64,000 nt of DNA from the NCBI GenBank assembly GCA_965204755.1, contig OZ242011.1, forward strand, positions 1,888,001 to 1,952,000, given 5' to 3'. The notes beneath the pieces were generated by a model that saw only the letters and a program-made list of their open reading frames with translations, had not been told where the DNA came from and searched no databases. The position numbers and the translations under genes are program-made. Source of the DNA: Candidatus Marinacidobacterium sp. (GTDB lineage: Bacteria > Acidobacteriota > Vicinamibacteria > Marinacidobacterales > Marinacidobacteraceae). This document shows, in pieces, positions 3,129 through 43,263 of this stretch; position 1 is the first letter of the stretch, and every line of letters begins with the position of its first letter.

Positions 3129-5081
3129 GTGAAACACCACCGCCGCGCGCGGACCGCCCTCCCCACCTGCGCCGCCGCCCTCGCCACGACCCTCGCCGTC
3201 GCCCAACCCCCCGAAGACACCCACTTCCCCTGGCCCTCCTTCCGCGGCCCCTCCGCCTCCGGCATCGCCGACGGACAAGCCCCGCCGACCGAGTGGGACG
3301 CGGGCACCGGCGAGAACATCCGCTGGAGCACGGAGATCCCCGGCCTCGGTCACTCCAGCCCCATCGTCTGGGGCGACCGCGTCTTCCTCACCACCGCGGT
3401 CAGCGCCGACCCCGACCCGGTCTTCCGCTACGGCACCGACGGCCGCATAGATCGCCGCTCCGACCGCGAACCCAACACCTGGTTCGTCTATGCCTTCGAC
3501 CGCGCGGACGGCCGCGTCCTCTGGACCCGCGAAGCCGCCAGCGGCGTCCCCGCCATCGCCCGCCACCCGAAGAACACCTACGCCTCCGCGACCCCCGCGA
3601 CCGACGGCGAGCGCGTCGTCGCCCTGATGGCCAACGGCGGCCTCTTCGCCTACGACCTCGACGGCGAGCCGCTGTGGTCGGTGGACCTCGGCCCCCTCGA
3701 CTCCGGCGCCTCCTACGACGACACCTACCAGTGGGCCGCCGCCAGTTCCCCCATCCTCTGGCGCGGCCTGGTGATCGTCCAGGCCGACCAGCAGGAGGGC
3801 TCGTTCCTCGCCGCCTTCGACGCCGCCACCGGCGAGGAGGCTTGGCGCGCACCCCGCCAGTTGATCTCCGCCTTCTCGACGCCGCTCGTCCTCGAAGGCC
3901 CCGCCCGCGCCGAACTCGTCACCAACGGCGCCGGCACCATGTTCGGCTACGACCCCGCGACCGGCGAAGAACTCTGGCGAATGTCCGGCAGTTCCTTCAA
4001 CACCACGCCCACCCCGGTCGCCGCCGACGGGCTGATCTACCTCACCAGCGGCTACCGCATCCGCCCGATCTTCGCCGTCCGCGCCGGCGCCGCCGGCGAC
4101 ATCTCCCTCGCCGAAGGCGCCCGCTCGAACCCCGATGTGGCCTGGAGTTCCCCCCGCGACGGCCCCTACATGTCCTCCCCGCTGGCCTACCGCGGCCTCC
4201 TCTATGTGGTCTCCACCGGCGGCGTCCTCACCGTCTTCGACGCCGCCACCGGCGACCGCATCTACAAGCGCCGCATCGGCGACCGCGGCGGCGCCTACAC
4301 CGCCTCCCCGGTGGCGGCGGACGGGCGGATCTACCTGGCGTCCGAGGACGGCGACATCTTCGTCATCCGCGCCGGCCCCGACTACGAGTTGCTGGCCGCC
4401 AACCCGATGGGCGAAGTCTGCCTGGCCACCCCGGCGATCTCCGAAGGCCAGATCCTCATCCGCACGACCTCGCGCCTGGTCGCCGCCGCCGACGGCATCG
4501 CCGCCAGCGCCGCCCCCGCGAGACCCTCCCGCGCCCCCTTCCCGGAGGCGTTCGCGGCCGGGACGACCCTCGCGCTCGACGACTTCGAGGACGACGACCT
4601 CTACGCGAGCACCGGCGTCCGCTGGCAGACCTTCACCAACGGCGTCTCGAACGCCGAGTTGCGCCTCGTCCGCCCCGGCGCCGGTTCGACGGGGGCGGCC
4701 GTCCGCGTCGAGGGCGAACTGGCCCTCGGCGCCGAACGCGGCCCCCTCGCCCAGATGTACCAGCCCTTCGACCGCGGCGCCATGCCGGTGGACTTGCGCG
4801 GCCTCGGCGGCGTCCGCTTCCACGCCCGCGGAAACCGCCCCTTCGACCTCTCCATCCGCTGCGCCGACGGCGAATTCCGCCACGAAGTCCCGGTCTCGGA
4901 GGAATGGCGCCCGTTCGACCTCCCCGTCGAATCCCTCACGCCCCTCCGCCCCGACAACGCCGGCGCCCCGTGGACCGGCGACCGCTGCGTCGGAATCTAC
5001 TTCTCCCGCCGCGGCACCGCCGACCCCGGCCCGTTCCGCTTCGAGTTGGACGAAATCACCCTCTACGGCCGCGCCCGGTAG
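3129..5081 (+). CDS. Secreted PQQ-binding-like beta-propeller (BamB-like) protein with C-terminal CIA30/carbohydrate-binding-like domain
   Basis: Signal peptide; WPSFRGP, GHSSPIVWGDRVFLT, YASATPATDG and YTASPVAADGRIY repeats; C-terminal LDDFED...GVRFHARG domain; GAGGA RBS before GTG 3129. Confidence 0.85.
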   Translation: MKHHRRARTALPTCAAALATTLAVAQPPEDTHFPWPSFRGPSASGIADGQAPPTEWDAGTGENIRWSTEIPGLGHSSPIVWGDRVFLTTAVSADPDPVFRYGTDGRIDRRSDREPNTWFVYAFDRADGRVLWTREAASGVPAIARHPKNTYASATPATDGERVVALMANGGLFAYDLDGEPLWSVDLGPLDSGASYDDTYQWAAASSPILWRGLVIVQADQQEGSFLAAFDAATGEEAWRAPRQLISAFSTPLVLEGPARAELVTNGAGTMFGYDPATGEELWRMSGSSFNTTPTPVAADGLIYLTSGYRIRPIFAVRAGAAGDISLAEGARSNPDVAWSSPRDGPYMSSPLAYRGLLYVVSTGGVLTVFDAATGDRIYKRRIGDRGGAYTASPVAADGRIYLASEDGDIFVIRAGPDYELLAANPMGEVCLATPAISEGQILIRTTSRLVAAADGIAASAAPARPSRAPFPEAFAAGTTLALDDFEDDDLYASTGVRWQTFTNGVSNAELRLVRPGAGSTGAAVRVEGELALGAERGPLAQMYQPFDRGAMPVDLRGLGGVRFHARGNRPFDLSIRCADGEFRHEVPVSEEWRPFDLPVESLTPLRPDNAGAPWTGDRCVGIYFSRRGTADPGPFRFELDEITLYGRAR

Positions 5082-5100
5082 AGCAGGTTCGCCGCCCCCG
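5028..5100 (+). repeat. 73-bp direct repeat, copy 1 (3' end of PQQ gene)
   Basis: Matches 6294..6366 with 2 mismatches (offset 1266). Confidence 0.95.
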
Positions 5101-5298
5101 GTCCCGGGGCCACTCCGGGACAACCCGCCTCCGGAGGCGCTCGGCGGAATCGTCCGAGCCACCGGTGCGCCTTCCGGTAGGTCGGCTCCACCGGAGTCGC
5201 GCTTGCACGCGCTCCGCGTCCCTCGATAGGGTGGGAATCGGAGCGCCGAACTGACGGCTGCTCCGCTCAACCTCCGATCGACCAGACGGGAGCCGACG

Positions 5299-6255
5299 AT
5301 GCTTCAGGCACTCAAGGACTACTTCAAGGCGCGAGGAATTCTCTCGACGCACTTTCGCTGCGAGCACAGCGATTCCTGCGCAGGGTGCTTGGCGGCGGAG
5401 GATCATCCTGACTGGGAGATTGATCTCCGCTTCGCCAGGGAAGACTCCGGCGACGGAGACACTCGCCCATGCCCGAAGTGCGGGGCGCCCATGGACCGCG
5501 CCTGGAAGGGAAAGAAGGAATGCAGGGTGAAGGGATGCGGCTACTTTCCCCGGTTCACCGGCCCGAAGTCTTCGTATGTCGGTACGGGGTACGAGCGAAG
5601 CGGGGGATTCGCACGGGGAGACTTGCCTCGGCTCTTCATCCTCTCGCCGGATTCCGGAGGTGAGACTTGGGACGCGAGGAGCAAGACACCGGAGTCGGTT
5701 CGGCGCTGGGAAGAACGAGCCACCAATGATGTGGCGAACTACGGCGAGAAAGACCAAGACAAACACTGGTACCGGACCTATGAACTCGCCTCGTACATCC
5801 TCCGTGTCTTCGATCCGAGGTTCGAGACCATCGGAAATGTGACGGGTCACTTCGCGCATGTCAACGCCGCGAAGTGCTCCCTCAACAATTACGCCAACAG
5901 AGAGGCCGATGATCAACTCGCCGAAAACTGCCGCGAGTACCTTCCCGGAGAACTGGAGATTCTTCGCCCCGACATCGTGGTAACGCAGGGCAGGAAGTGC
6001 GAAAGACTCGCCGTCAGGCATCTCTACCGTGGCCGGATCAGTCAGATCGAGGGTGAACTGGCGTGGGTCCAAATGAACGATGCGCACCGGTTCTTGTGGC
6101 TGTGGATTTTCCACCCGACTTCGCGGCCGCCTAGGAAGGGAGAGCTCAGCCCGTTCGAGAAGCAGGCCGACTACGACGCTTCGGGGACCGCGCAAGGTTG
6201 GGTGCGGCGCTCAAGACGGATCCGCCAACTCTTGGAGGAGTCTCAGAGCGGGTAA
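5299..6255 (+). CDS. Uracil-DNA glycosylase superfamily-like protein with Cys-rich N-terminal region
   Basis: AHVNAAKCS...ENCREYLPGELEILRPDIVVTQG...IFHPT resembles the UDG fold; N-terminal CEHSDSCAGC, CPKC and CRVKGC; GGGAG RBS; lower GC. Confidence 0.6.
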   Translation: MLQALKDYFKARGILSTHFRCEHSDSCAGCLAAEDHPDWEIDLRFAREDSGDGDTRPCPKCGAPMDRAWKGKKECRVKGCGYFPRFTGPKSSYVGTGYERSGGFARGDLPRLFILSPDSGGETWDARSKTPESVRRWEERATNDVANYGEKDQDKHWYRTYELASYILRVFDPRFETIGNVTGHFAHVNAAKCSLNNYANREADDQLAENCREYLPGELEILRPDIVVTQGRKCERLAVRHLYRGRISQIEGELAWVQMNDAHRFLWLWIFHPTSRPPRKGELSPFEKQADYDASGTAQGWVRRSRRIRQLLEESQSG

Positions 6256-6293
6256 GTCGCGACGAATCGGGTGTCCTGAGCGGCTTCGCGGGA

Positions 6294-6366
6294 GGCCCGT
6301 TCCGCTTCGAGTTGGACGAAATCACCCTCTACGGCCGCGCCAGGTAGAGCAGGTTCGCCGCGCCCG
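6294..6366 (+). repeat. 73-bp direct repeat, copy 2 (contains the stop codon of the convergent FG-GAP gene)
   Basis: Matches 5028..5100. Confidence 0.95.
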
Positions 6367-7441
6367 ACCGCGCCGCCGCGATGTCCGGCGCGCCGTCGCC
6401 GTCCACATCGCCGACCGCGAGCCCGTACACCGTTCCCGCGCCGTCCCCGAAGGGAACCGGCGTGAACCGCTCGGCGGCGCCTTCGTTCCGGAGCACGACC
6501 GCGGGTGCTTCGCGGCTGCCCACGGCCAGGTCCAAGTCGCCGTCCCCGTCGAAGTCGGCCGCCGCCAGCGAATAGACATCGTCGCTCCCGCCGCTGATCT
6601 CGCGGGGCGGCGCGAACGAACCGCCGCCGCGGTTCCGGTGGAACAGCACTCCCCCGGCGATCTGATCGCTGACCGCGATGTCCGCGCGTCCGTCCCCGTC
6701 GAGATCGGCCAGCGCGACCGCCCGCGCCGCGGACTCCGCCGGGCCGACCGGGCGCGGCTCGTCGAACCCGCCGTCCCCGTCGCCGGCGAACAGGTAACTC
6801 TGCCCGCTGTCCCGGTGGGGCGTGAACAGGTCCGCGAGCCCGTCCCCGGTCAGGTCGCCGGCCGCGATGATCGTCGCCGACTCGCGTGACAGCGCCTCGC
6901 ACGCGGGGAACCTTCCGGCGCCGTCGTTCAGGCAGGTGTAGTTGACGCTGGTGTTGTCGCGCCCGCCCCGGTTGGCGACGATGAGGTCCGGCCGCCGGTC
7001 GCGGTTCAGGTCCGCCACCGTGACATACCGCGTCCGCCACGCCGGGTCGCCGAAGGTCCCGGCGGGGCGGAACCGCCCGGCGCCGTCGTTCGCGTAGAGG
7101 CGCTTCTCGTCCGGCCGGTCGTTCCCGACGACCAGGTCGAGGTCGCCGTCCTCGTCGAGGTCCGCCAGCGCCGCCGTGTAGGTGCGGTCCGCCGGGAAGC
7201 CGGTGTCCTCGGCGGCGGCGAACCCGCCCGCGCCGTCGCCGAGCAGGATCCGGTTCTCGAGCGGCCAGTGCCGCCCCTTCGCCAGCACCAGGTCGAGGTC
7301 GCCGTCCCCGTCGAGGTCGCCGAAACTCGCGCCGGCACTCGTCTCCGCCGTCTCTTCGAGCGCCCGCGCCTCGAACCGGATCTCTCGGGCGCCCGGGCCG
7401 GCCTGCGCCGGCGCCGCGAGGAGGAGCAGGAGAACCGTCAT
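6329..7441 (-). CDS. FG-GAP/VCBS repeat beta-propeller secreted protein
   Basis: Repeated DLDGDGDLDLV motifs; signal peptide MTVLLLLLAAPAQA from ATG 7441. Confidence 0.9.
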   Translation of the reverse strand: MTVLLLLLAAPAQAGPGAREIRFEARALEETAETSAGASFGDLDGDGDLDLVLAKGRHWPLENRILLGDGAGGFAAAEDTGFPADRTYTAALADLDEDGDLDLVVGNDRPDEKRLYANDGAGRFRPAGTFGDPAWRTRYVTVADLNRDRRPDLIVANRGGRDNTSVNYTCLNDGAGRFPACEALSRESATIIAAGDLTGDGLADLFTPHRDSGQSYLFAGDGDGGFDEPRPVGPAESAARAVALADLDGDGRADIAVSDQIAGGVLFHRNRGGGSFAPPREISGGSDDVYSLAAADFDGDGDLDLAVGSREAPAVVLRNEGAAERFTPVPFGDGAGTVYGLAVGDVDGDGAPDIAAARSGAANLLYLARP

Positions 7442-31322: not shown

Positions 31323-33038
31323 ATGACCCGACCCTCTCCCTCCCGCCCCTCCCGCCGCCGGTTCCTGCAGGGCGCCGCCGGCGCGGTCGCCGCGACCGCC
31401 GCCGCGCCGCTCGCCCGCCCGGGTTCCGCCGAGGCCGCCCCCGACGCCGCCGAACGGAAGCGGCTGGTGGCGCAAGCCCACTTCGGGCGCAAGCCGCCGG
31501 CGTCCGGCCCCGGCGGCATGGCGATCACCTCGCACCCCCTCGCCACCCGCGAAGCGGTGGAAGTGCTGCAGCGCGGCGGGAACGCCTGCGACGCGGCGCT
31601 CGCCGCCTCGATCACCCAGACCGTGGTCGAACCCCACATGACCACGATCACCGGCTGCCTCTCGCAGTTGTACTTCGACGCCGCCAGCGGCGAGACCACC
31701 TATGTGAACGGCAATGTGGACACGCCGCTCGCGCCGCTGCCCGGTTTCGGCGTCCACGACCTCGCCGGCGGCCGCGGCGTCGCCGTCCCCGGCTGGTGGG
31801 GCGGGTTCGAAGCGGCGCACGACCGCCACGGCTCGCTCCCGCGCCAGGACCTGATGAAGACCGCCGTCGCCTACGCGCGGGAGGGTTTCGAGATGCACCC
31901 CTTCCTCTGGGGCGAAATCTTCGTCCAGGCGGAGAAGGTCGGCCGCACTGCGGAAGGCCGCGAGATCTTCTTCGAAGACGGCGCCATACCCCGGCCCGAC
32001 GGCCTGCTGGTGCAGGAGCGCGCCGCCGACACCTTGGAGCGCCTCGCCGAAGAAGGCGGCGACTACTTCTACCGCGGCGACTTCGCCCGGAAGGTCTGCG
32101 AAGTGGTGAAGGCCGCCGGCGGCGTGCTCACGCCCGACGACTTCGCCCGTTGGGAACCGCGCTGGCAGGAACCGGCGTGGGGCCGCTACCGCGACTGGCG
32201 CATCGCCGGTTCCCCGCCGCCGGACAACGGCGGCACGCACCTCATCGAGATGCTCCAGATGCTCGAGCACTTCGACCTCGACCACCACGGCCCGCCCACC
32301 GAGTCCGCCGAGTCCCTGCTGCAGTTGGTGCGCATCAGCCACGCCGTGTACACGGAAGGCGCCCGGCAGAACGACCCGGAGACCCACCCGCTGCCGCTCG
32401 AGACGATCCTCTCGCCGGAGTACGCGCGGATGCGATACGAGTTGCTGCAGATGGGGCACCCGGTAACCGACCCGGCCGACCCGCCGCCCCCCGCCGGCAG
32501 CAACCATGTGACCGTGGTGGACGCCGCCGGCAATGTGGCGACGATCCTCCATTCCTGCATGTCCTACCCGTGGAGCAACGGCCTCTTCGCCGAGGGCGTG
32601 AGCATCTGCGCCGCCGGAGCGCACTTCCTGCGCGTGATGCCGCGCCCCGGCCAGCGGATCTCGGCGTATGTCGCGCCGAACATCGTCTTCCGGGGCGACC
32701 GCCCGGTGCTGGCGTCCGGCTCGCCGAGCGTCAGCCTGCTGCAGAACATCCTCCAGAACAGCCTGAACCTGCTGCAGTTCGGTGAGGAGGTGGAGGAGTC
32801 GGTGCACCGCCCGCGCTTCGGCGGCCCGTCGCTCACCGTTCCCGGAGCGGTCCTGATCGAGGCCGACTTCCCGGAGGCGGTGCGCGAGAAGGTCGCGGAG
32901 CGGGGAATCCGCTTCGATGTGGTGAATCCCTGGAACTGGCACCACGGCTCGTTCGAGGGCATCCACCTCGGCGAAGACGGCGAGCGCCGCGCCTGCGGCG
33001 ACCCGCGCCGGTGCAGCATGGCGGAGGCCTCCGCGTAG
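31323..33038 (+). CDS. Gamma-glutamyltransferase (Ntn-hydrolase) family, Tat-exported
   Basis: GGNACDAA, VAVPG, DYFYRG, PPPDNGG, (S)NHVTVVDAAGN and C-terminal DPRR. Confidence 0.88.
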   Translation: MTRPSPSRPSRRRFLQGAAGAVAATAAAPLARPGSAEAAPDAAERKRLVAQAHFGRKPPASGPGGMAITSHPLATREAVEVLQRGGNACDAALAASITQTVVEPHMTTITGCLSQLYFDAASGETTYVNGNVDTPLAPLPGFGVHDLAGGRGVAVPGWWGGFEAAHDRHGSLPRQDLMKTAVAYAREGFEMHPFLWGEIFVQAEKVGRTAEGREIFFEDGAIPRPDGLLVQERAADTLERLAEEGGDYFYRGDFARKVCEVVKAAGGVLTPDDFARWEPRWQEPAWGRYRDWRIAGSPPPDNGGTHLIEMLQMLEHFDLDHHGPPTESAESLLQLVRISHAVYTEGARQNDPETHPLPLETILSPEYARMRYELLQMGHPVTDPADPPPPAGSNHVTVVDAAGNVATILHSCMSYPWSNGLFAEGVSICAAGAHFLRVMPRPGQRISAYVAPNIVFRGDRPVLASGSPSVSLLQNILQNSLNLLQFGEEVEESVHRPRFGGPSLTVPGAVLIEADFPEAVREKVAERGIRFDVVNPWNWHHGSFEGIHLGEDGERRACGDPRRCSMAEASA

Positions 33039-34339
33039 TGGCCCGCCGCTCCGTTTCGTTCGCGCCCCGCCGTTTCCCGGCGTTCGGGCTCCCGGTCGTC
33101 GCCGGTCTCCTGTTCGCCGGCGTTCTGCCGGCAGCGGCCCAGGACACCCTGCTCCGTTGCGGAGCGGTCTTCGACGGCGAAACCCTTTCCGGCGCCGCCG
33201 AGATCCGCGTGAGCGGCGACCGCATCGCCGGCCTCGAAGGCGGCGCCGCGGAAGAAGTCGTGGACCTCGGCGATTACACCTGCCTCCCCGGCCTCATCGA
33301 CCTCCACGCCCACCTCACGATCAACCCGGAGACGCTCACCGCCCTCGACCTCTACCGCTCGAGCGCGGCCCGGACGCTCGACGCCCTGAAGAACGCGCAG
33401 GCGATGCTCGGCGCCGGCTTCACCACGCTGCGGTCACCGGGCGAGTTCGACGGCTACTACGGGATCGTGGACCTGAAACGCGCCATCGCCCGCGGCGACC
33501 ACGAAGGGCCGCGCCTGCTGGTCGCGCCGCACGCGATCTCCGCCACCGGCGGACACGGCGACTTCAACAACCTGATGGCGGACCTCCACATCGAAACCCC
33601 GACGCGCATCGCCGACGGCCCGGAGCAACTCCGCGCCGAGATCCGCCGCGAGTTCAAGTACGGCGCCGACTGGATCAAGTTGATGATGACCGGCGGCGTG
33701 ATGTCCGCCGGCGACGACCCGAATGTCAGCACCTACACCGAAGAAGAGATCCGCGCCGCCGTCGAGGAAACCCACCGCCACGGCAAACGGATCACCGTGC
33801 ACGCCCACGGCGCTCCGGGAATCGTCATGGCCCTCCGCGCCGGAGTGGATTCGGTGGAGCACGCCACCCTGGTGGACGAAGAAGGCGCCGCCCTCTTCCG
33901 CGAACGCGGCGTCCCGATGGTGCCCACGCTCTATGTCATGAACTACATCGTCGAAGAGGGCGAAGCCATCGGCTTCCCCCGCGAGAGCATCGAGAAGGCG
34001 CGCGCCCTGATGGAAGAACGCAACCGCCGCATCGGCGCCGCCTTCGCCTCCGGCGTCCCCGTCGCCTTCGGCTCCGACACGATCTTCCCCCACGAAACCG
34101 CCGCCCGCGAGTTCGCGGTCATGGTCGGCCTCGGCCTCTCCCCGGAAAACGCCCTCCGCTCCGCCACCACCGTCGCCGCCCGCGCCCTCGGCCTCGAAGC
34201 CGAAATCGGCCGCCTCGCCCCCGGCTACACCGCCGACCTCATCGCCGTCGCCGACAACCCGTTGGAGGACATCCGCACGATGGAGAATGTCCTCTTCGTA
34301 ATGCGCTCCGGCCGCATCGTGAAACTTCCGGCCTCGTGA
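33038..34339 (+). CDS. Metal-dependent amidohydrolase (Xaa-Pro dipeptidase-like)
   Basis: LPGLIDLHAH, ISATGGHGD, GADWIK, HAHG, SVEHA, FGSD and ADLIAV.NPLEDI. Confidence 0.9.
   Translation: MARRSVSFAPRRFPAFGLPVVAGLLFAGVLPAAAQDTLLRCGAVFDGETLSGAAEIRVSGDRIAGLEGGAAEEVVDLGDYTCLPGLIDLHAHLTINPETLTALDLYRSSAARTLDALKNAQAMLGAGFTTLRSPGEFDGYYGIVDLKRAIARGDHEGPRLLVAPHAISATGGHGDFNNLMADLHIETPTRIADGPEQLRAEIRREFKYGADWIKLMMTGGVMSAGDDPNVSTYTEEEIRAAVEETHRHGKRITVHAHGAPGIVMALRAGVDSVEHATLVDEEGAALFRERGVPMVPTLYVMNYIVEEGEAIGFPRESIEKARALMEERNRRIGAAFASGVPVAFGSDTIFPHETAAREFAVMVGLGLSPENALRSATTVAARALGLEAEIGRLAPGYTADLIAVADNPLEDIRTMENVLFVMRSGRIVKLPAS
34031..34323 (+). repeat. 293-bp direct repeat, copy 1 (3' end of amidohydrolase gene)
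   Basis: Matches 38091..38383, offset 4060, about 14 mismatches by eye, no indels. Confidence 0.95.
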
Positions 34340-34427
34340 CAGCGATCCGCAAGCGCTCCGGGTTGGAAGGAAGGCCGGCGCAGCGCCCATGGTCTCTCTC
34401 ATCCGCGCCCGCTGAGGATCCCCAATC

Positions 34428-35408
34428 GTGACTTCGGAATCGCCACTCTCCACCCTGCGGAAAACGAGTGAGAAAATCGCGCGAGACTTCGTGGATCGCC
34501 CGATCGTCTTTCGCGGATACCTCAGCCAAGTGCTCTCTCCCGCTCTGACCGACATACTCGGCCCTGTCAAGGAACAGATCCTCAAGGACTTCCACCGCCC
34601 CGAAGCGACGACTTCCATCACGCACTACACGAGCCTCGCCGCGCTCTTGTCGCTCATCGAGGGCTCGCCGAAGACCGCGAAAGCGAATTCGTTGCGCCTG
34701 TTGCCCACCTATCGCTTCAACGATCCCACGGAGGGGGCGTACTTGCCTCGGGAGATCGCGCGTGTTACTGATCATGACTGGCTCGAGGCCGATGTTGCTC
34801 CGCTCGCTTTCGCTGCCTGTTTCGTAAGTAACGGCAACGAGAACGCCGGTGATGATCTCGTGTACTGGCGCAGTTACGGCAGTGACGGGGAGGGTTGCTC
34901 GATTACTTGGAAGCCGGAGGGTTTGACGAACCTCTATGCCGTCGCGTATTCGGACGGTGTGGAACGCGTCACGAAGCGACTCGAACCGATCCTCGCGGCC
35001 CTCCAGCCCGCGCTCCATGCTCCGGATCCCACCTGCAGCCGTGAGGCGCGACGCGTCCTCGGTCGAACCTTCTGGAAATCACTGACGGAACTCCGCTATC
35101 TCTACAAGAGCGACGCCTATCGGCACGAGCGCGAGTCTCGAGTTCTGATTACGGAGGGAGGCAAGTCCTTCCAGCCGGACCGTGTGGTCTTCGTGCGCAA
35201 GGATGAGCCGGACGGCTATCCCGATCTCTGCCGGTATTATGTCGATCCTTCCCTATCGGCAGAGCGCATCTTCCGTCCCGGAACCCGAATCACCTTGGGC
35301 CCCCAAGTCCGACACGCGCCGGACGCCAAGGCCTACATCGAAAACCGACTCAAGACTCCACTTCTGGCTGAGGTCAGGGTGTCCTCCGTCCCGTACCGAA
35401 CCACTTAG
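34428..35408 (+). CDS. DUF2971-like protein
   Basis: HYTS...FNDPTEG...ACF...DDLVYWRSYG...YKSDAYRHERESR...ITLGP pattern. Confidence 0.75.
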   Translation: MTSESPLSTLRKTSEKIARDFVDRPIVFRGYLSQVLSPALTDILGPVKEQILKDFHRPEATTSITHYTSLAALLSLIEGSPKTAKANSLRLLPTYRFNDPTEGAYLPREIARVTDHDWLEADVAPLAFAACFVSNGNENAGDDLVYWRSYGSDGEGCSITWKPEGLTNLYAVAYSDGVERVTKRLEPILAALQPALHAPDPTCSREARRVLGRTFWKSLTELRYLYKSDAYRHERESRVLITEGGKSFQPDRVVFVRKDEPDGYPDLCRYYVDPSLSAERIFRPGTRITLGPQVRHAPDAKAYIENRLKTPLLAEVRVSSVPYRTT

Positions 35409-36834
35409 CGAGAGGTCGGATAAGGTTGTCAAAGGACGAGCGCGGCGGTTCGGTCGAGGTGACATAGTGCGGTATTTCACTGTCGCCTCGCGCTCTTCGA
35501 CGACGAAAGGAACAGTGTTCGTGGCAGTCGCCCTTCATAACCCGGGTTTCTCCCGTCACGAACTGGTGTTCCTGCCAGGTCGCATCCGGCCACCAGTCCG
35601 GCGCCAGCAGGTAGCGAAGCCATAGATTGACCTGCATTCCGGCTACTCCGAGGGCGAAGGGAAAGACATTCTCGTTCCGCTTCGACTCCGCGGGGAGGTT
35701 GCGGATGTAAGTGGGGGCGTCCAGCGAACCGTCGAGTTCGGCGACGACCATCCCCGAAGAATATTGCTCGCTGCACCTCAGGCATTGGTGGTGCGGAGTC
35801 ACGATCTGCGTGCGCCAATGGGCCGAGAACAGGCGATCTCGCTTGGGGTCCGTAGCAACGGCCACGCCGCCGTCCACGACGGGGATCAGGTGGGCATTGG
35901 CGATGTAGTTCAACACATCCCGCGCTATGGGACGGTCCACGCAACTGAACAGCACATCGCAGTCCAAGGCGGCGAGGTATCCACGCTTTCGATGTACGGA
36001 CACCGGCAACCGTTCGATTTCGACCTTGGCAGCCGTGGCGTGCCTCCGGAGCCGACGCGCGGCGACATCCACCTTGGCGCGGCCGATGTCGCTCGCCGTC
36101 GCGTGGAGGAGCCGGTCGAGGTTGTGCTCTTCGACGCGGTCCGGGTCGATCAGCGTGATTTTCGCCACCCCGATACGGGCGACGGACTCGGCCACGATCG
36201 AACCGACGCTTCCTGCTCCGATCACACCGACACGCAGTCGAGCGATGGTGTTCTGGACATCGTGGCCCCAAGTATCGAAGGTCCGCCGCAAGAGGTTGCG
36301 ACGACGCGGCGGGGGGAAGGAACGGTCGTTGAAGTAGTAGCGGCACGCTCCTCGGGAGAGGATACGCACCTTGCTGCACCAATTCCGGCGCATGACCGCG
36401 CCATCGCGTTCCCAGAAGCGCGCGCTCCAGTAGCCATCGGCGCCGATCGTCAGGCCCACGAGCGGCAACTTGGTGGCATGGGCGGGGTAGGCGATCACAT
36501 CCCGCTCCGCGACGGTGTCGGCTGGGCTCAGGTCCTGCCATCCGTCGGTCGGATGACTATGCATGAAGGCGAGCCCCATGCCGCGCTGCTGCGCTGTCAG
36601 GAGGGCTCGCGCGAGATAGGCGGGTGTGAAACTCACATTTCCGTGGAGTCGGCGCTCCCCGGAGCGCGGGAGCAGGACCTCGGAGATCAACGCCGTGCGG
36701 CGTACGGCGCCGGTAGCCGGCCGCCACATGGCGAAGCACAGGTCTTCCTGCGCTTCGTCCTTCCGCAGGTGCTGGAGGAGATGGGAGGCGGCCGCCTCGT
36801 CCGCCTCGGCAGTGAGGGCGGCGTCGAAGATCAC
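35374..36834 (-). CDS. JAB peptidase + ThiF/E1 adenylase fusion (BubCD-like)
   Basis: JAB: QEDL...HSHPTDGWQDLSPAD. E1: GAGSVGS, DPDRVEEHNLDRL, K, CVD, CLRC and CHEHC. GTG start overlaps E2 stop. Confidence 0.88.
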   Translation of the reverse strand: MIFDAALTAEADEAAASHLLQHLRKDEAQEDLCFAMWRPATGAVRRTALISEVLLPRSGERRLHGNVSFTPAYLARALLTAQQRGMGLAFMHSHPTDGWQDLSPADTVAERDVIAYPAHATKLPLVGLTIGADGYWSARFWERDGAVMRRNWCSKVRILSRGACRYYFNDRSFPPPRRRNLLRRTFDTWGHDVQNTIARLRVGVIGAGSVGSIVAESVARIGVAKITLIDPDRVEEHNLDRLLHATASDIGRAKVDVAARRLRRHATAAKVEIERLPVSVHRKRGYLAALDCDVLFSCVDRPIARDVLNYIANAHLIPVVDGGVAVATDPKRDRLFSAHWRTQIVTPHHQCLRCSEQYSSGMVVAELDGSLDAPTYIRNLPAESKRNENVFPFALGVAGMQVNLWLRYLLAPDWWPDATWQEHQFVTGETRVMKGDCHEHCSFRRRRARGDSEIPHYVTSTEPPRSSFDNLIRPLAKWFGTGRRTP

Positions 36835-37223
36835 ATGGCCGCCCAGAGGCGCCGCAGGTGTTCCTTGAAGAAGAGGCTCATGTGCTTGGTGGGGAAGCGG
36901 TCCCACGACGGGCCGGGCGGGCGGCTCATCGCGATCCAGTCGCGGTTCTCGGGATCGGTGTACTTCTGGGTCACGCCTCCCCGTCCGTCGTCCATGGGCG
37001 GGGAGATGTGGACCCAGTGCGGAGGGTATTCGGGATAACCCTCGCTGCCCTGCATGCTCACTCCGATGCGCACCCGGCGACCTTGGTGGGAGCCGGTTGG
37101 GACTTCGTAGTCGAACGATACGACCTCGCCGTGGGGGCTCGCGGAAACCGCGGTCGCGTAGCCGAGCGCCTCGATTTCCTGCCGGATCCGATGGAGGCTG
37201 TAGGACTGAAGACCGTCGGGCAT
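36831..37223 (-). CDS. Prokaryotic E2-like protein (Cys-free, WxxxSR type; BubB-like)
   Basis: YEVPTG, YPEYPPHW and WIAMSRP; located between Ubl and E1; no Cys in sequence. Confidence 0.72.
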   Translation of the reverse strand: MPDGLQSYSLHRIRQEIEALGYATAVSASPHGEVVSFDYEVPTGSHQGRRVRIGVSMQGSEGYPEYPPHWVHISPPMDDGRGGVTQKYTDPENRDWIAMSRPPGPSWDRFPTKHMSLFFKEHLRRLWAAM

Positions 37224-37236
37224 TCTCTTCGTGGGA

Positions 37237-37488
37237 TCAGGCTACGGGAGTGGCCCCGATCGGAATCGTCAGGAAGTGGGAGTCTTCTCTCAGGTCCACG
37301 GTCTCGTCCCAACCGTATCGGCGTTTGTCGCCCTGGAGCCGGTACTGGTCCGGCGGCTCCGGCATCGCGTGGTGTTTTTCGGCCAGTTCGAGGATGTCGT
37401 GAGCGACCGGAGTCGGCGTGCGCATCGTCATTTCGATGCCGTTCACCTTGAGAGTGAACTCTTCGCCGGTAGTCGAGGTAGCGCCCAT
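37237..37488 (-). CDS. Ubiquitin-like (multiubiquitin-type beta-grasp) protein
   Basis: FTLKVNG...DILELA...YRL...DETVDL...FLT pattern; first gene of Ubl-E2-E1 operon; ends TPVA. Confidence 0.78.
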   Translation of the reverse strand: MGATSTTGEEFTLKVNGIEMTMRTPTPVAHDILELAEKHHAMPEPPDQYRLQGDKRRYGWDETVDLREDSHFLTIPIGATPVA

Positions 37489-38022
37489 CGTGTGGTGACC
37501 CCCTGCGCGATTGTGTGCTTGGTTCGCTTCGTCCGCCCCGGACGCCCGCAGCGAGAGAGGTGGAAGACGAGCCGTCGACGAGACGGACTCCGGAGCCGAA
37601 GAACACCCCTATCTTAGCCATCCGACGGAGCCATGAGTCCGGTCGTCCCCTCCTCGGCCCGTCCTCGTGGAACCCGCGGAGCCACGGTCGGACGGGCCCG
37701 TCGGCCCGGCCTGTTCCCCGCCGACCTGCTGCTGCGGCAGGCGCTGGTGGCCCGCCAGGACCGGCGGACGCGCGGGGCGCGGCTCTCGGAGGCGAGCCAG
37801 ACGCGGAGGAGGCCCGCCTGACCTTGGGGGTGCAACAAGGTGTTCGGCGCGCTCCGGGCCGAGGCGGGGCGGGACGGGGTGTGGCGGCGCGCCGCCTGGT
37901 GTCGGGCCCGGTGTTCGGCTGGTGGGCCGGCAACTGCCCCGGCGGGCCGCGCCGGTTCCACCCCCGCGCCGACTCCGCGAAGTCGCCTAACCCCCGACAC
38001 CCCCGCCGGACTTCGCCCGGTT

Positions 38023-38086
38023 TGTAGTGTGCCTACGAAACCAACTTCCCAACTGTCAATCACTTACAAAGCCAAACCGTCGAAGT
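38023..38086 (+). repeat. 64-bp AT-rich dispersed motif, copy B, ending 4 bp before the duplicated gene end
   Basis: TGTAGTGTGCCTACGAAACCAACTTCCCAACTGTCAATCACTTACAAAGCCAAACCGTCGAAGT; about 91% identical to reverse complement of 2564..2627. Confidence 0.9.
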
Positions 38087-38090
38087 CGAG

Positions 38091-38402
38091 ATCGGCGCCG
38101 CCTTCGCCTCCGGCGTCCCCGTCGCCTTCGGCTCCGAAACGATCTTCCCCCACGCCACCGCCGCCCGCGAGTTCGCCGTCATGGTCGGCCTCGGCCTCTC
38201 CCCGGAAAACGCCCTCCGCTCCGCCACCACCGTAGCCGCCCGCGCGCTCGGCCTCGAAGACGAAATCGGCCGCCTCGCCCCCGGCTACGCCGCCGACCTC
38301 ATCGCCGTCGCCGACAACCCCTTGGAGGACATCCGCACGATGGAACGAGTCCTCTTCGTAATGCGCTCCGGCCGCGTCGTGAAGGGGCCGCCTGCTCGGT
38401 GA
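38091..38402 (+). pseudogene. Duplicated 3' fragment of the amidohydrolase gene (direct repeat copy 2, 38091..38383)
   Basis: Same reading frame as the amidohydrolase C-terminus, ends ...VVKGPPAR*; no 5' part. Confidence 0.9.
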
Positions 38403-38567
38403 ATGTTGCCGGACTTTCCGGACGCAGTGTGGACGGCGGCGGAGCCGTGAATTCCGCCACCGGCATCGCGTATTCTTCCGCTTCACGCTCTTTGCGAACG
38501 CCCTCGCTCGCATCGCCGGTCATCTGGTGGATGGCGAAGGCACGAGCCCGAACTACCAGAGAGGAAC

Positions 38568-38993
38568 ATGACCTTCGAGACACTTGTGAACCTCGTGATT
38601 GCGATCGCGGTCGTCCAGATCGGTTGGTTGATTTGGTTCACGATCAGCATCACTGAAATGCGCCGATCTCTTCGGACGCTGAGTCATCACGCGATCACAC
38701 GAGAGTTCCGTATCGAGCGGGTCGATCAAGAACAGTTCCGCCTGTTGAACGCTTCGACACCTACTATGTGTGGCGGTTGTAGCCGCGTGCTGGATGATTG
38801 GGTCAGCGAGAAGGAGCAGGTGGTTCGCGCCGTGGCGTATGTTCGGCGTCACGGGATTCCCGCTCGGCTTTGCCTCGAATGTGCGGAGAAAGAACACCGT
38901 GATGTTCTGCGAGAGTGGGATCGGGAGACCGAAGAGGCGGCCGTCGCGAAGTTGCTCGAGGAGTCCGGAATCGGGAAGCGCGACGATTCTTGA
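38568..38993 (+). CDS. Hypothetical protein: N-terminal TM helix + CxxC...CxxC zinc-ribbon-like domain
   Basis: GAGGA RBS; hydrophobic residues 5-27; CGGC and CLEC; low GC. Confidence 0.6.
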   Translation: MTFETLVNLVIAIAVVQIGWLIWFTISITEMRRSLRTLSHHAITREFRIERVDQEQFRLLNASTPTMCGGCSRVLDDWVSEKEQVVRAVAYVRRHGIPARLCLECAEKEHRDVLREWDRETEEAAVAKLLEESGIGKRDDS

Positions 38994-39048
38994 TTTCGAC
39001 GGTTCGAGCAGTGCGGCCCGTGACTCGGGACGCCGAACCGAGTACGGC

Positions 39049-40203
39049 TCAGCGCCGCGCGAATTCCCGGGGCAGGCGGTCGACGCCCCGCGGGGCGGTC
39101 GTCGGCTCGATGATTTCGGCGAGGCTCAGGCCGGCGTCCAACTCCGCTTGGATATCCGGGAGGTCGCTTCCCAGCCGGACCTCCGTCCCTTCCGGGCCGG
39201 GGCTCAGGACGACGACTTCGTCCTTGCCGAGCCCCTCGTCCTCGAGCAGTTCGCGGGAATGCGAGGTCAGGATCACCTGCGGCCCGCCGTGGAACCGCAT
39301 CCGGCTGAGAATCGTCGGCAACAGGCGGACGAGCGACGGGTGGAGATTCGCTTCCGGTGTCTCCATGAGCAGCGGCCCATGCGACTCCCTTCCTTCCAAT
39401 AGCGCCCAGAGGAGTTCGATCAGGCGGAGAGTCCCGTCGGAAAGGTCGCGCTCGGTGTGTCGAGCATCCTCGGCGCGCCAGTGTTCGTACCGGACTCGCA
39501 GGCGACGCCGGCCGACTTCGTCCGTCCCGAGTTCCACTCTCTCGAGTTGTGGAATCGCGATCCCGAGCGCTCGACCGAGACGGCGCAGCCGCGCGGCGCG
39601 GATCCGTTCCGGCGTCCGCGCCATCCGCTGCAGGAAGTCCGCCCGGTCGGAATCGTCGGTCGGGGCCTCCGTTCGTTGCGGGCTGCGGAACCGCCGCGGG
39701 GCCGGATCGAGATACCGGATGGAACGAAAGAACGCCCCGACTTCCCGAAACTCCCGATTCTGGTTGACCTGCTCGAGGGCGGTCTGCGTCATCCCCTCCC
39801 GATCGGATCGGTCCTCCGGGGTGGGTCGCGAAAGGACCTCGCGTCCGTCCAGAGTGACGGACTCGCGCACCACGACCGGACGCCGCCGCCCGCGCGGTTC
39901 GACGCCGAAAGCGAGTTCGTAGGCCGCGGAGCCGCCGCCGTCGCCGAGTTCCGCCCGGATCGTCGAGGGGACGCGGGCGGAGCCGGGGGCGGCGAGACAG
40001 CGCCGCCGGGACGGGCCGCCGCGGTAGCGGACGGCTGCCTGGAACCCGCCGGGCGAGGCGACCTGCCGGAGGAAGCGGAGGGCTTCCAACAGGTTGGACT
40101 TCCCGACCCCGTTCGGCCCCACGACGACCATCCGCTCCTGCAGGGGGAAGTCCGCCCGGCGGAAGTTCATCCAATTCTTCAGCGTGAGACGGGAGAGGCG
40201 CAC
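39049..40203 (-). CDS. AAA_21 / ABC-type (SMC/RecF-like) ATPase
   Basis: LTLKNWMNF, GPNGVGKSN, LSDGTLR, METPEANLHP and QVILTSHS. Confidence 0.88.
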   Translation of the reverse strand: MRLSRLTLKNWMNFRRADFPLQERMVVVGPNGVGKSNLLEALRFLRQVASPGGFQAAVRYRGGPSRRRCLAAPGSARVPSTIRAELGDGGGSAAYELAFGVEPRGRRRPVVVRESVTLDGREVLSRPTPEDRSDREGMTQTALEQVNQNREFREVGAFFRSIRYLDPAPRRFRSPQRTEAPTDDSDRADFLQRMARTPERIRAARLRRLGRALGIAIPQLERVELGTDEVGRRRLRVRYEHWRAEDARHTERDLSDGTLRLIELLWALLEGRESHGPLLMETPEANLHPSLVRLLPTILSRMRFHGGPQVILTSHSRELLEDEGLGKDEVVVLSPGPEGTEVRLGSDLPDIQAELDAGLSLAEIIEPTTAPRGVDRLPREFARR

Positions 40204-40365
40204 GCTCCGGAGCCTACGCCGCCGGGGGGCCACCCGCCATCGGCTTGCCGGCCCCGCCTCGGCCCCGTCGCGCGCCCGGTCCGGCGCCCCGGACAAGCGG
40301 TTGCGGCGGCGGAGGCGGGTCTCGTACACTCGGTTCCCCCTACTCGCTGACAGCAAGGAGCCCAC

Positions 40366-43263
40366 ATGCGCAACCGACTTACCCTCGCGGCCTTCGGGGC
40401 CGCGCTCGCTTTTGCCCTGCCCGCCGCGAGTCCGGCGGCCGCCCAGGAACTCCGGGGGCGGCTGGTCGGCACCGTGAGCGACGCCACCGGGGCCGTCCTC
40501 CCCGGGGTGACGGTCATGGCGTCCAGCCCGGCGATGATCCAGGACCAGACCACGGTCACCGGCGGGCAGGGGACCTATGTGTTCCCCGCGCTGCCCACCG
40601 GGGTCTATTCGGTGACCTTCTCGCTCTCCGGGTTCGGCTCGGTCGTCCGGGAAGACATCCAGATGACCCTGAACACCACCCTCACGGTGAACGCCACGCT
40701 CAATGTGGGCGGGGTCGAGGAGGTCATCACGATCACCGGTGAAGCGCCGGTGGTGGATGTGAAGACCACCGCCACCGGCGTGAACTTCACCGAGGAACTC
40801 CTCGAAGACATCCCGAACGCCCGCGACATCTGGGCGGCCATGGCGCAGGCGCCCGGCTTCCAGATGGAGGGCTACGATGTGGGCGGCTCCCATACCGGCA
40901 CGCAGACCGGCTTCCAGGCCTTCGGCTTCGGCGACCAGCACCGGACGCTGCTCGAAGGCATCAATGTGACGGAGACCACCTCCGGCAACGCCGGCTACTT
41001 CGACTACGGGAGTTTCGAGGACTTCCAACTCGGCGGTTCGGGCAACATGGGCGAAACCCACGGCCTCGGCGCCTTCTTCAACCTCACGGTGAAGTCCGGC
41101 GGCGACCGCTTCAACGGCGACATCTATGTGGACTTCGAGAACGACAGCACGGTCGGCGACAATGTGCCGGATTCGCTCCGCACCGGCGGCGGCACCGTAG
41201 GGCCGTACAAGGCCGGCGGCGACGGCCTCCAGGCCGGGAACCCGATCACGCTGCAGAGCGACATCAATGTGGGAATCGGCGGCCCGATCTGGCCCGGCAA
41301 GGCGTGGTTCTACGCGGGCTACCGCCTGAACCACCAGGAGAAGTTGACGATCGGCAACCCCGACCCGGCGACGACCCAGTTGGGCAACTGGACGGGGAAG
41401 GCGACCTACCAGTTGTCCGATTCCAGCCAGTTGATCGGCTTCTTCAACCGGCGCTCCAAACTCCAGGCCGAGCGCGGACTCGGCGGCGATCGGCCGCTCG
41501 ACACGGCGTGGTATCAGGCATCCGTCAACAAGCCGATGAAGATCGAGTACACGAATGTGGTTTCCGACCAGGTGTTCCTCAACTTGCAGGTGAGCCACTG
41601 GATCAACCAGTTCCCGTTGTATCCGACCCAAACGAAGTCCGAAAGCGTGGAAGGCATTTCCGCGGGCCGTCGCGACCAAGGGACCGGCGACTACACGAAC
41701 GCCTACTCCTACTATCACTTCCGCAAGGTCACGAAGCCGCAGTTTTCGGGCAACCTGACCTACTTCGCCGATGATTTGGGCGGGCAGCACACTTTCAAGA
41801 TCGGCACGGAGGTCTACCGGGAGCGTCGGAGTTTCTTGCGCATGCAGCCCGAAGACATCTTCTATTGGGATCGGGACGGCGAAGTCGAGGATGTATCCAT
41901 CTACAACACGCCGAACACCGGCGTGAACGACATCTATCTCACTTCCGCCTATGCGCAGGATGCGTGGACGATCAACGACCGACTCACCCTGAACCTCGGC
42001 CTTCGCTTCGACCGCTACCGCATGGGATGGCCGGACCAGTCCATGTCCCCGACCCACTCCGACATCTTCGCTCCGCTCGAGGTGTCGCAGCGCGATGTCC
42101 TGACCTTCTCGAACATCGGGCCTCGGATCGGCGCCGCCTTCGACTTGACCGGTGAAGGAACGACCGTGCTGAAGTTGTTCGGCGGCCGGTTCTACTGGAA
42201 TCCCAGCACGACGATCGTCGACGACGAGAATCCCGTCGGCCAAGCCGCATTCCGCCACCGCTTCAATGACCTCAACGGCAACCGGATCTTGGATCCCGGG
42301 CCGAGCGGCGGCTTGGCGGACTCACCGGAACTGGGCGAAAAACTGAGCACCTCGGGCGGCGCCGGTTTCGTCACCGTGGACCCGAACCTGACGAACGCCT
42401 ACGGCCACGAAGCCTCGGCGCACTTCGAGCACCAGTTGGCGGACAACTTCTCCTTCCGCGCCTCCTATGTGCACAAGAACTCGCGCAACGGCTACGGCAT
42501 CGTGGACTTGGGCCGGGCGAACGCCTACAACATCCCGTTCACCTACGAAGACCGGGGCGCGGACAATGTGGCCGGTACCGGCGACGACCAGACGATCCAA
42601 CTCGTGGACCGTCCGTCGGGCGTCGATGAGAACCGGATGTATGTGAACCCCGGAGCGCACGGCTTGCCGGCGCCGGACGGGAACTACCACACCATCGAAG
42701 TGGCCCTGAACCGGCGTTTCTCCGACCGCTGGATGTTCCTGACCTCGTTCCTCCACACCTGGGCCAACGCCCACATGCGCACGACCGCCTCGACCAGCGT
42801 GCGCGCCGCCGCCCGTTTCGACTTCGTCGAGGGGACGACCTACGAGTGGCGGCCGAACCAGTCGCTCCGCCTCGGCGCCATCGACACGACCTACTGGAAC
42901 TACAAGATGGTCGGTCGCTACATCTTCCCGTGGGATGTGGGCGTCAGCGCGTCCTACAAACTGCAGAGCGGCTACCAGACGGCTCGCCGGATCAGCGTCC
43001 GGCTGCCGAACGCCGGCACGGAGCGCGTGATGGCCTCGCCGTACGACGAACGCGCCCCCAGCGTCGGCATCTTCGACATGCGCGCCGAGAAGGCGTTCAC
43101 GCTCCCGAAGGGCGTGAATGTGGCCCTGCTGTTCGACGGCTTCAACCTGCTCAACAGTTCGACGGTGCTCAACTACCGCACCATCTCGGGCGGCCGCTAC
43201 AACGAGATCGTCGCCATTCTCGACCCCCGCATCTTCCGCGTAGGCGTCCGGATCGAGTTCTGA
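40366..43263 (+). CDS. TonB-dependent receptor with carboxypeptidase-regulatory-like N-domain
   Basis: Signal peptide, GTVSDATGAVLPGVTV, YAQDAWTINDRLTLNLGLRFD, C-terminal RVGVRIEF; AAGGAG RBS. Confidence 0.93.
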   Translation: MRNRLTLAAFGAALAFALPAASPAAAQELRGRLVGTVSDATGAVLPGVTVMASSPAMIQDQTTVTGGQGTYVFPALPTGVYSVTFSLSGFGSVVREDIQMTLNTTLTVNATLNVGGVEEVITITGEAPVVDVKTTATGVNFTEELLEDIPNARDIWAAMAQAPGFQMEGYDVGGSHTGTQTGFQAFGFGDQHRTLLEGINVTETTSGNAGYFDYGSFEDFQLGGSGNMGETHGLGAFFNLTVKSGGDRFNGDIYVDFENDSTVGDNVPDSLRTGGGTVGPYKAGGDGLQAGNPITLQSDINVGIGGPIWPGKAWFYAGYRLNHQEKLTIGNPDPATTQLGNWTGKATYQLSDSSQLIGFFNRRSKLQAERGLGGDRPLDTAWYQASVNKPMKIEYTNVVSDQVFLNLQVSHWINQFPLYPTQTKSESVEGISAGRRDQGTGDYTNAYSYYHFRKVTKPQFSGNLTYFADDLGGQHTFKIGTEVYRERRSFLRMQPEDIFYWDRDGEVEDVSIYNTPNTGVNDIYLTSAYAQDAWTINDRLTLNLGLRFDRYRMGWPDQSMSPTHSDIFAPLEVSQRDVLTFSNIGPRIGAAFDLTGEGTTVLKLFGGRFYWNPSTTIVDDENPVGQAAFRHRFNDLNGNRILDPGPSGGLADSPELGEKLSTSGGAGFVTVDPNLTNAYGHEASAHFEHQLADNFSFRASYVHKNSRNGYGIVDLGRANAYNIPFTYEDRGADNVAGTGDDQTIQLVDRPSGVDENRMYVNPGAHGLPAPDGNYHTIEVALNRRFSDRWMFLTSFLHTWANAHMRTTASTSVRAAARFDFVEGTTYEWRPNQSLRLGAIDTTYWNYKMVGRYIFPWDVGVSASYKLQSGYQTARRISVRLPNAGTERVMASPYDERAPSVGIFDMRAEKAFTLPKGVNVALLFDGFNLLNSSTVLNYRTISGGRYNEIVAILDPRIFRVGVRIEF

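Follow-up and report, generated by a model that had tools for sequence, protein, structure and literature searches.

How does an intact bacterial gene come to be followed by a second copy of its own 3′ end, with a ubiquitin-like conjugation operon lodged between the two? The question is raised by a 64,000-nucleotide stretch of the genome of Candidatus Marinacidobacterium sp. (Acidobacteriota; assembly GCA_965204755.1, contig OZ242011.1, positions 1,888,001 to 1,952,000 of the forward strand), here called the window; coordinates count from its first letter unless given as genome coordinates. In it, the last part of an amidohydrolase gene is repeated on the far side of a cassette that holds a DUF2971-like gene, an operon resembling Type I Bub and, at its right end, the remains of an insertion sequence (IS). 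An initial annotation, made from the letters alone, had taken this cassette for a transposase-free, non-autonomous vehicle that parks defence genes at the 3′ ends of core genes. We arrived at a different reading. Very probably an IS of the IS1634 family made the repeat, a judgement that sums two IS-based histories set out below. We favour, as rather probable, the history in which the IS landed first and made the repeat, and the gene module replaced its left arm later.

The genome is a single 3.98-Mb contig with a GC content of 71.7%. A repeat search returned 34031–34323 and 38091–38383 as one direct-repeat family of 293 nt at 95% identity with a spacing of 4060 nt. Alignment with MAFFT placed zero indels, a scripted count gave 279 of 293 identical positions and 14 differing sites, and similarity ended abruptly at both edges, so that the duplication is as first described (about 95%, no indels). 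Genome-wide, the pair was the only match of its quality, the next best being a 69% paralogue. GC content was lower in the region between the two copies (0.60–0.69).

The host gene (33011–34339, + strand) is indeed intact and encodes an Xaa-Pro dipeptidase-like amidohydrolase (Pfam Amidohydro_1, E=2.5e-46; NCBIfam NF051886, 381.9 bits, under its cut-off of 500), with orthologues in 21 relatives at 75–82% identity. Repeat copy 1 (34031–34323, + strand) is proximal and lies inside this functional gene. Copy 2 (38091–38383), together with an ancestral-type gene tail and stop (38384–38402), forms a displaced pseudo-copy of the gene 3′ end (38091–38402, + strand). The contrast between endings in KLPAS and KGPPAR, reported earlier, was borne out: the working gene ends in ...IVKLPAS*, and read-through of copy 2 gives ...VVKGPPAR*. 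In the closest relative compared, the same-genus genome G001 (82% amino acid identity), the orthologue ends in VVKRPALR*, resembling copy 2, and is directly followed by a homologue of the 141-amino-acid gene found behind copy 2 at 38568–38993. Because gene order and tail in G001 match the copy 2 side, copy 2 and its downstream sequence represent the ancestral arrangement, as judged from sequence comparison, and the last 5 codons and stop of the working gene (34324–34339, LPAS*) derive from inserted DNA. As far as gene order goes, G001 thus provides the empty site that the initial annotation had proposed to look for among relatives, complete with a tail like that of copy 2.

When the 14 differences were polarised with seven orthologues, few derived changes fell in copy 1 and most in copy 2, including D16E and E22A at otherwise invariant positions. 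Identity to the G001 orthologue was near-equal for both copies (87.4% and 86.3%). Since both are equally near G001 and the derived changes are concentrated in copy 2, the sequences fit a duplication that arose in place, after which the unused copy would have decayed; a foreign surrogate gene end would fit poorly.

What, then, duplicated the gene end? The initial annotation had pointed to a 64-bp motif just before copy 2, which occurs once in the window with three mismatches allowed and at 13 genomic places of at least 64 nt, itself included (blastn-short). This motif belongs to a 1,911-bp IS1634-family insertion sequence, whose right inverted-repeat end it forms. Four intact copies, A to D, are present in the genome (genome coordinates 1257072–1258982, ~3341160–3343069, 3934808–3936718 and 2340536–2342446), 99.6–100% identical to copy A and all cargo-free. 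Their terminal inverted repeats match at 19 of 21 positions, and each carries a 560-amino-acid open reading frame (ORF) that matches the NCBIfam model NF033559, 'IS1634 family transposase', at 319.5 bits (E=4.5e-95, cut-off 100), as well as Pfam DDE_Tnp_1 (E=2.9e-17). A transposase with the same ends, which the earlier reading had left to be found, therefore exists in this genome. Direct repeats of 286, 601, 285 and 201 bp, 100% identical within each pair, adjoin the four copies exactly at their tips. The suspected link to long target duplications of the IS1634/IS1549 type hence holds, as does the co-occurrence of the motif with long direct repeats elsewhere in the genome (4 intact copies among the 13 motif places, each repeat-flanked). 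The element is an IS1634-family member that shows the behaviour of IS1634 and IS1549, for which passages of a 2008 review give variable direct repeats of 8–514 bp and no mechanistic model (PMC2266710). Copy B (3340559–3343670 with its flanks, genome coordinates) carries a perfect duplication of 601 bp, beyond that published range.

The window contains a decayed copy of this element at 37688–38090 (+ strand), 403 bp long including the right inverted repeat. Against an intact copy, 37688–37955 aligned with IS positions 307–575 (81.6%) and 37916–38090 with positions 1737–1911 (91.4%; blastn). The cassette is not strictly transposase-free, as had been claimed, since 37696–37884 still encodes transposase residues 63–125 (68% identity, E=7.6e-20, tblastn). 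The 64-bp motif (38020–38083) lies inside the remnant and is real; its supposed distance of 4 bp from copy 2 is not, because the conserved inverted-repeat tip (...AAACCGTCGAAGTCGAG) reaches 38090 and directly abuts copy 2. Since 37688–38090 is a decayed IS with its tip against copy 2, a long target-site duplication is the best reading of the 293-bp repeat, and the length of the repeat falls within the 201–601-bp range of duplications at the intact copies.

Only the right inverted repeat of the IS is retained in the cassette. The left arm (IS 1–306) was not found in 34300–38100 (blastn with word size 7, and tblastn of the intact IS), and nothing like the left inverted repeat was seen at the junction with repeat copy 1; that no matching left-end motif is evident had been recognised correctly. 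At the left junction of the cassette (TGAAACTTCCGG), an 11/12 match to the tip of a second IS, described below, was set aside, as four of its bases belong to the gene.

On the favoured reading, a 1,911-bp IS1634-family element would have inserted in the amidohydrolase gene, just short of its 3′ end, and, as the four intact copies did, duplicated a long target stretch, of which either side retains 293 bp or more. The repeat copy beside the gene body would have stayed in use, and the distal copy would have drifted to 95% identity as a pseudo-fragment. The IS would then have decayed, losing positions 1–306 (the left inverted repeat and the start of the transposase) and about 576–1736, with the 403-bp remnant left behind. 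After the insertion, the module may have replaced the left arm through one illegitimate insertion-deletion event. The structure would now be a fixed, immobile relic that can be lost only by recombination between the repeats.

The place where the IS left arm would be expected is occupied by this module: the 3.36 kb that separate repeat copy 1 from the IS remnant hold a DUF2971-like gene and an operon for a ubiquitin-like protein (Ubl), an E2-like protein and a JAB-E1 fusion. The DUF2971 assignment of the convergent gene (34428–35408, + strand, 326 amino acids) is weak in Pfam (E=0.026, below cut-off) and is backed by Atlas matches, 27 of 30 of which are DUF2971 clusters (top score 0.97). A sequence search of the PDB with this protein gave no match. 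Its homologues adjoin E1 in a paralogous locus of the same genome and in the relative G024, which marks it as a conserved operon partner. The JAB-peptidase/E1 fusion (35374–36906, − strand, 510 amino acids) is BubCD-like: it matches Pfam ThiF (E=9.1e-35) and, weakly, Prok-JAB (E=0.045), and its closest counterpart in the PDB is Citrobacter BubCD (9ea4, E=1.3e-24, over query residues 72–358). For the E2-like protein (36831–37223, − strand, 130 amino acids) there was no Pfam match, and a PDB sequence search gave chance-level matches only. Its AlphaFold2 model, built from a 6-sequence alignment (pLDDT 88, pTM 0.83), had Citrobacter BubB as the top Foldseek match in the PDB (9eae_C, probability 0.95, TM 0.50, E=0.077), followed by Ubc12, and the protein is accordingly described as BubB-like from its predicted structure. 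The small Ubl (37237–37488, − strand, 83 amino acids) scored 23.8 bits against Pfam Multi_ubiq (E=5.1e-05, cut-off 24.5) and has a homologue at the same position in G024, where the four-gene layout recurs. A promoter and terminator scan of 34200–38600 returned no site of either kind.

Type I Bub (6E.1) operons are composed of BubAB, BubCD and BubE, with antiphage activity inferred, according to parts of a preprint (bioRxiv 10.1101/2024.11.21.623953). The module resembles them in its JAB-E1 fusion, the BubB-like E2 fold and the small Ubl upstream. It differs in that Type I Bub operons have a Ubl-E2 fusion (BubAB) and a DUF6527 protein (BubE), whereas here Ubl and E2 are separate ORFs, 13 nt apart, and the partner is the convergent DUF2971-like gene; DUF6527 gave no match in any ORF of 34428–38063 at E up to 5. 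By its predicted proteins the module is thus Type I Bub-like, failing two of the three defining gene-fusion and partner features. With PADLOC, the E1 domain matched only generic E1-E2 (CBASS-type) models (best E=5.6e-19), and the DUF2971-like gene had a weak PDC-S31 match (E=0.002). The module presumably conjugates Ubl to targets as a stress or antiphage response, and a defence role of the cargo is plausible.

The cargo DNA is unique in the genome except for a 69% paralogue of its own, which lacks an IS. That paralogous module (locus L033, genome coordinates 2647254–2649951) encodes DUF2971-like, E1 and E2 proteins at 30%, 63% and 43% amino acid identity and occupies a low-GC islet of 3.2 kb that lacks a flanking repeat and an IS; no Ubl was detected there. 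Its E1 match is split, which suggests a frameshift. A search of metagenome contigs and of 54 genomes from the order, in collections where records close to this genome may be missing, found no near-identical copy of the module; 62% amino acid identity was the highest. Homologous modules were surveyed at 26 loci, comprising the paralogue, four relatives and 21 metagenome loci, and none of the 26 had high-identity flanking repeats or an IS1634 transposase. Since the module occurs at these loci without either, it does not need the repeat, which supports the favoured reading.

Could the module and the IS instead have arrived together? Under this alternative they would have moved as one unit, with the IS right end and an unrelated far sequence serving as ends; insertion of this unit at the gene end would have produced the 293-bp duplication, and the IS part would have decayed afterwards. 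This is in effect the vehicle of the initial annotation, equipped with its own transposase at the time of movement, and we regard it as unlikely, though a serious rival. Such a unit leads one to expect an internal left inverted repeat between module and transposase, which is absent from the cassette. Terminal inverted repeats were not found on the cargo (score 6, below the shuffle 95th percentile of 8–9), and across seven cargo segments none beat its shuffles, whereas both IS controls did. An inverted-repeat-like surrogate end was likewise missing at the far boundary of the cassette, where 67% of random genomic windows score as well; at five cargo-distal boundaries, each compared with 3,000 random genomic windows, none stood out (67–95% of random windows match the scores). 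All four intact IS copies being cargo-free also speaks against joint movement, as do the failure to find a second copy of module plus IS in another context, in collections that may lack records close to this genome, and the 0 of 26 other loci with the module beside an IS1634 transposase. A non-autonomous vehicle is thus difficult to uphold, with no left end, no terminal inverted repeats, no surrogate end and, on the right side, a decayed full IS. Parking at the 3′ ends of core genes is no preference of the element either: two of the four recent copies sit in ORFs, copy B in the middle of one (taking out the IS and one repeat restores a 980-codon ORF) and copy D on the 5′ start of another, which it duplicates (699 codons). 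The 3′-end position of old insertions is better explained by selection.

What favours joint movement comes from the rest of the genome. A genome self-comparison yielded 206 candidate pairs and, from these, six islets of low GC with direct repeats of host sequence on either side. Four of the six carry IS1634-family remnants directly abutting a repeat copy, and two carry none. Besides the cassette itself (repeat 293 bp, 95%; Bub-like module, then the IS remnant against copy 2), the first group includes a Fic-gene islet (locus L002, genome coordinates 438179–445136), in which pseudo-copy pieces of 309 and 236 bp (86% and 87%) flank a cluster of nested remnants of both IS1634-family elements of this genome; the cargo between gene and pseudo-copy, about 3.9 kb, comprises an erythromycin-esterase-family gene and a 790-amino-acid gene. 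An islet whose cargo encodes a GmrSD_N plus Schlafen AlbA_2 protein (2622107–2625065, repeat 114 bp, 90%) has the order repeat, IS 1748–1914 ending in the inverted repeat, cargo, repeat. A methyltransferase-like islet (240057–242182, repeat 66 bp, 89%) has the order repeat, truncated second IS ending in its inverted repeat, cargo, repeat. These last two layouts need the fewest steps as joint transposition plus one deletion. A further hint at an asymmetric process is the right-end bias among remnants of the 1,911-bp IS, eight of which keep the right end only and none the left end only; for the second IS the numbers are 2 and 2. With four of six islets holding IS1634-family remnants, co-mobilisation keeps its place as a rival, and a general role of these elements in making such islets is possible.

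Shared motifs at the islet boundaries were also considered and treated as chance: 2 of 30 comparisons were just above the 99% shuffle level. One of these matches, 16/19 between the cassette and the 240-kb islet, is of a kind (19-mers with up to three mismatches) that occurs about 3–5 times genome-wide, for which reason it carries no weight.

The two islets without IS trace bear on a further alternative, in which the repeat was not made by an IS at all. Here the module would have come with its own gene 3′ end, either by Campbell-type single crossover of a circle or as an integrase-borne island with a surrogate gene end, and the IS would have hit the pseudo-copy later, followed by a leftward deletion. 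After such a deletion the visible repeat would start at the IS tip by construction. Gene-end repeats without an IS do exist in this genome. One flanks an islet with an N6-methylase and a MamI-type endonuclease (2746002–2749614, genome coordinates; repeat 176 bp, 97.7%), where the duplicated sequence is the 3′ end of a zinc-metallopeptidase gene together with its stop codon; this islet consists of cargo only, and neither IS, integrase nor inverted repeat was found in it. The other, the '73-bp case' (5028–6377 in the window, + strand), has a repeat at 5028–5111 and 6294–6377 (84 nt at 92%, inner 73 nt at 97%) that spans the stop codon of the upstream gene and brackets an insert of 1.2 kb, low in GC, in which a UDG family-4-like gene lies (TIGR00758, E=1e-05). 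Neither inside nor adjoining this islet was any IS sequence found, and the proposal that it was produced by the same system as the cassette is not supported. In the Fic islet, moreover, pieces of the pseudo-copy are preserved to the left and right of the IS cluster, and there the IS landed in an existing duplicate.

For the cassette we nonetheless consider an IS-free origin of the repeat quite improbable. No gene piece from upstream of 34031 was found left of the IS remnant. Neither integrase nor tRNA is present: ORFs tested between 33011 and 44388 contained no recombinase or integrase domain, 20000–50000 contained no tRNA, and no Rfam family lay nearby. Such repeats are missing from all 26 module loci elsewhere, and copy 1 does not look foreign, both copies being equally near the G001 orthologue. 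This history also needs more events and leaves the enrichment of IS1634 remnants at repeat-flanked islets unexplained. When spacers adjoining IS remnants were compared with host genes, no homology was found.

A last alternative is that the repeat, or the right junction, was mis-joined during assembly at a multi-copy IS end. Read evidence bearing on this came from contigs of runs labelled marine and sponge metagenome. The contigs of all four runs break at 34060–34231 and 38052–38091, and none bridges the IS tip into copy 2. Nor does any contig show an empty site or a circle junction, which, as contigs collapse repeats, speaks neither for nor against these. Over the repeat, k-mer depth is raised (for example 96 versus 44–62 in run X1). 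In three studies there are contigs that pass through the left junction into the cargo, from 34231 or 34286 on. An identical one spans 34231–38049, and others start at 38091 and continue downstream. The genome being a single 3.98-Mb contig and the 14 differing sites between the copies, unlike what a collapsed or duplicated assembly would give, further argue against an artefact, which we regard as extremely improbable. In all four runs, cargo and left junction are recovered on contigs that differ by 0 to about 0.8%, which makes the insertion an old, shared one and not a current polymorphism.

Several apparent joints in these contigs were rejected (32989 to 37884, 33424 to 40087, 33425 to 33502, 33759 to 38236 and 34183 to 37937), their sides of 21–24 nt being too short to trust. 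A joint from 37691 to 40297 in X14 has a side of 87, occurs in one contig at a depth of 19.5 versus about 650–700 and begins where the multi-copy IS remnant has its left edge.

Our favoured reading, that the IS came first and the module later took the place of its left arm, does not account for everything. No signature of the module replacing IS 1–306 can be recognised where the module meets repeat copy 1. The MamI islet (176 bp, 97.7%) and the 73-bp case have gene-3′-end repeats without an IS, so a route to such repeats that involves no IS, or one fully erased, exists in this genome. In the two further islets at 2622107–2625065 and 240057–242182 the retained IS end faces the cargo and not the repeat, an arrangement that an order of 'IS first, cargo later' explains poorly. 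Finally, the read evidence consists of contigs of four runs from four studies, not raw reads, and in these four runs the right junction (38052–38091) is unbridged by a unique contig, the breaks falling at a multi-copy IS end. All these points weigh against it.

Beyond the cassette, the IS left 300 bp were found solely in the four intact copies and one internally deleted copy. The window holds a second right-end remnant of the 1,911-bp IS, 70 nt long, at 2564–2633 (− strand). Within the right end at 38020–38043 there is an imperfect hairpin (GGTTTGTAG...CTACGAAACC), the first half of which recurs directly oriented near the left end (IS 71–87); this hairpin may be a candidate transposase binding site. 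The second IS1634-family element measures 1,963 bp (NF033559, 335 bits) and is only 31% identical to the first; one of its copies is flanked by a 129–131-bp repeat (89%). In the 54 other genomes of the order, DNA of the 1,911-bp IS was not found beyond marginal 29- and 39-nt matches (G015, G017), and a 27-mer from its end had 0 exact matches in a search of other genomes' contigs, a collection that may lack records close to this genome.

Downstream of copy 2, the initial annotation had seen more cargo. The first gene there, p141 (38568–38993, + strand, 141 amino acids, function unassigned), is instead an ancestral neighbour of the amidohydrolase gene, with a 45% identical homologue directly 3′ of the G001 orthologue. 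In a contig of run X3, 38385–38994 (610 bp, holding this gene) is swapped for 31 nt. The break of this replacement falls right at the end of repeat copy 2, making it a strain polymorphism whose boundary is the repeat end. Run X1 had no cover across 38374–38907, and its joint from 34325 to 39034 is best interpreted as copy 2 followed by a downstream sequence without p141, as in X3. The space between the amidohydrolase gene and the gene for a TonB-dependent receptor (40366–43263), 38403–40365 here, varies in content and length between genera: it is about 3.4 kb in G012, and G001 has no receptor gene within 13 kb. This space looks like a variable hotspot.

How does the locus compare with known systems? 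With IS1634 of Mycoplasma mycoides and IS1549 of Mycobacterium smegmatis, the element shares the NCBIfam equivalog DDE transposase, the 1.5–2 kb size range, terminal inverted repeats and long, variable direct repeats upon insertion. It differs in residing in a high-GC (71.7%) bacterium and in having one duplication (601 bp) that exceeds the quoted range. The copy in the cassette is, in addition, decayed and has a defence-type module in place of its left arm, a layout that those passages of the review do not describe for the family (PMC2266710).

The arrangement required for co-mobilisation recalls the units formed by ISEcp1. In these, an IS of the IS1380 family stands beside its passengers, the far end is unlike an inverted repeat and a target duplication surrounds the whole unit; ISEcp1 makes 5-bp duplications and keeps both its own ends. 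The cassette, by contrast, lacks the internal end, and a surrogate end cannot be detected in it. The duplicated gene end itself has a counterpart in e14 and phage 21, integrative elements that enter icd and carry a surrogate gene 3′ end. Common to both situations are a duplicated 3′ end of a protein gene of 100–300 bp with a few per cent divergence, an intact gene and a displaced native end. Here, however, there are no integrase, att-type arms or phage genes, and the far junction is an IS inverted-repeat tip.

A wider view is that IS1634-family elements are general makers of defence islets in this lineage, carrying or admitting neighbouring defence genes and then decaying. One-ended or sloppy-end transposition would leave a cassette bracketed by long repeats of the host gene end; RecA-type recombination could loop it out as a circle with one repeat, needing no transposase; and the circle could re-enter the same gene of a relative by single crossover, recreating the architecture. 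The two IS-free islets may, on this view, be end states with the IS fully erased. We think this scenario decidedly unlikely as a whole. If the link between IS and islets is causal, it would amount to a new route for parking, and possibly moving, defence genes; if not, the locus would be an ordinary decayed IS beside a Bub-like operon.

In either case the genome is a clean natural data set on long duplications, with two IS1634-family elements, four perfect duplications of 201–601 bp and older ones at 87–95%. Such duplications spare the host gene if the element inserts close to its 3′ end, leave a decaying pseudo-copy and create long direct repeats around whatever later fills the site. The value of the finding lies in this set, with one member above 514 bp, and in the association of IS1634-family elements with repeat-flanked defence islets.

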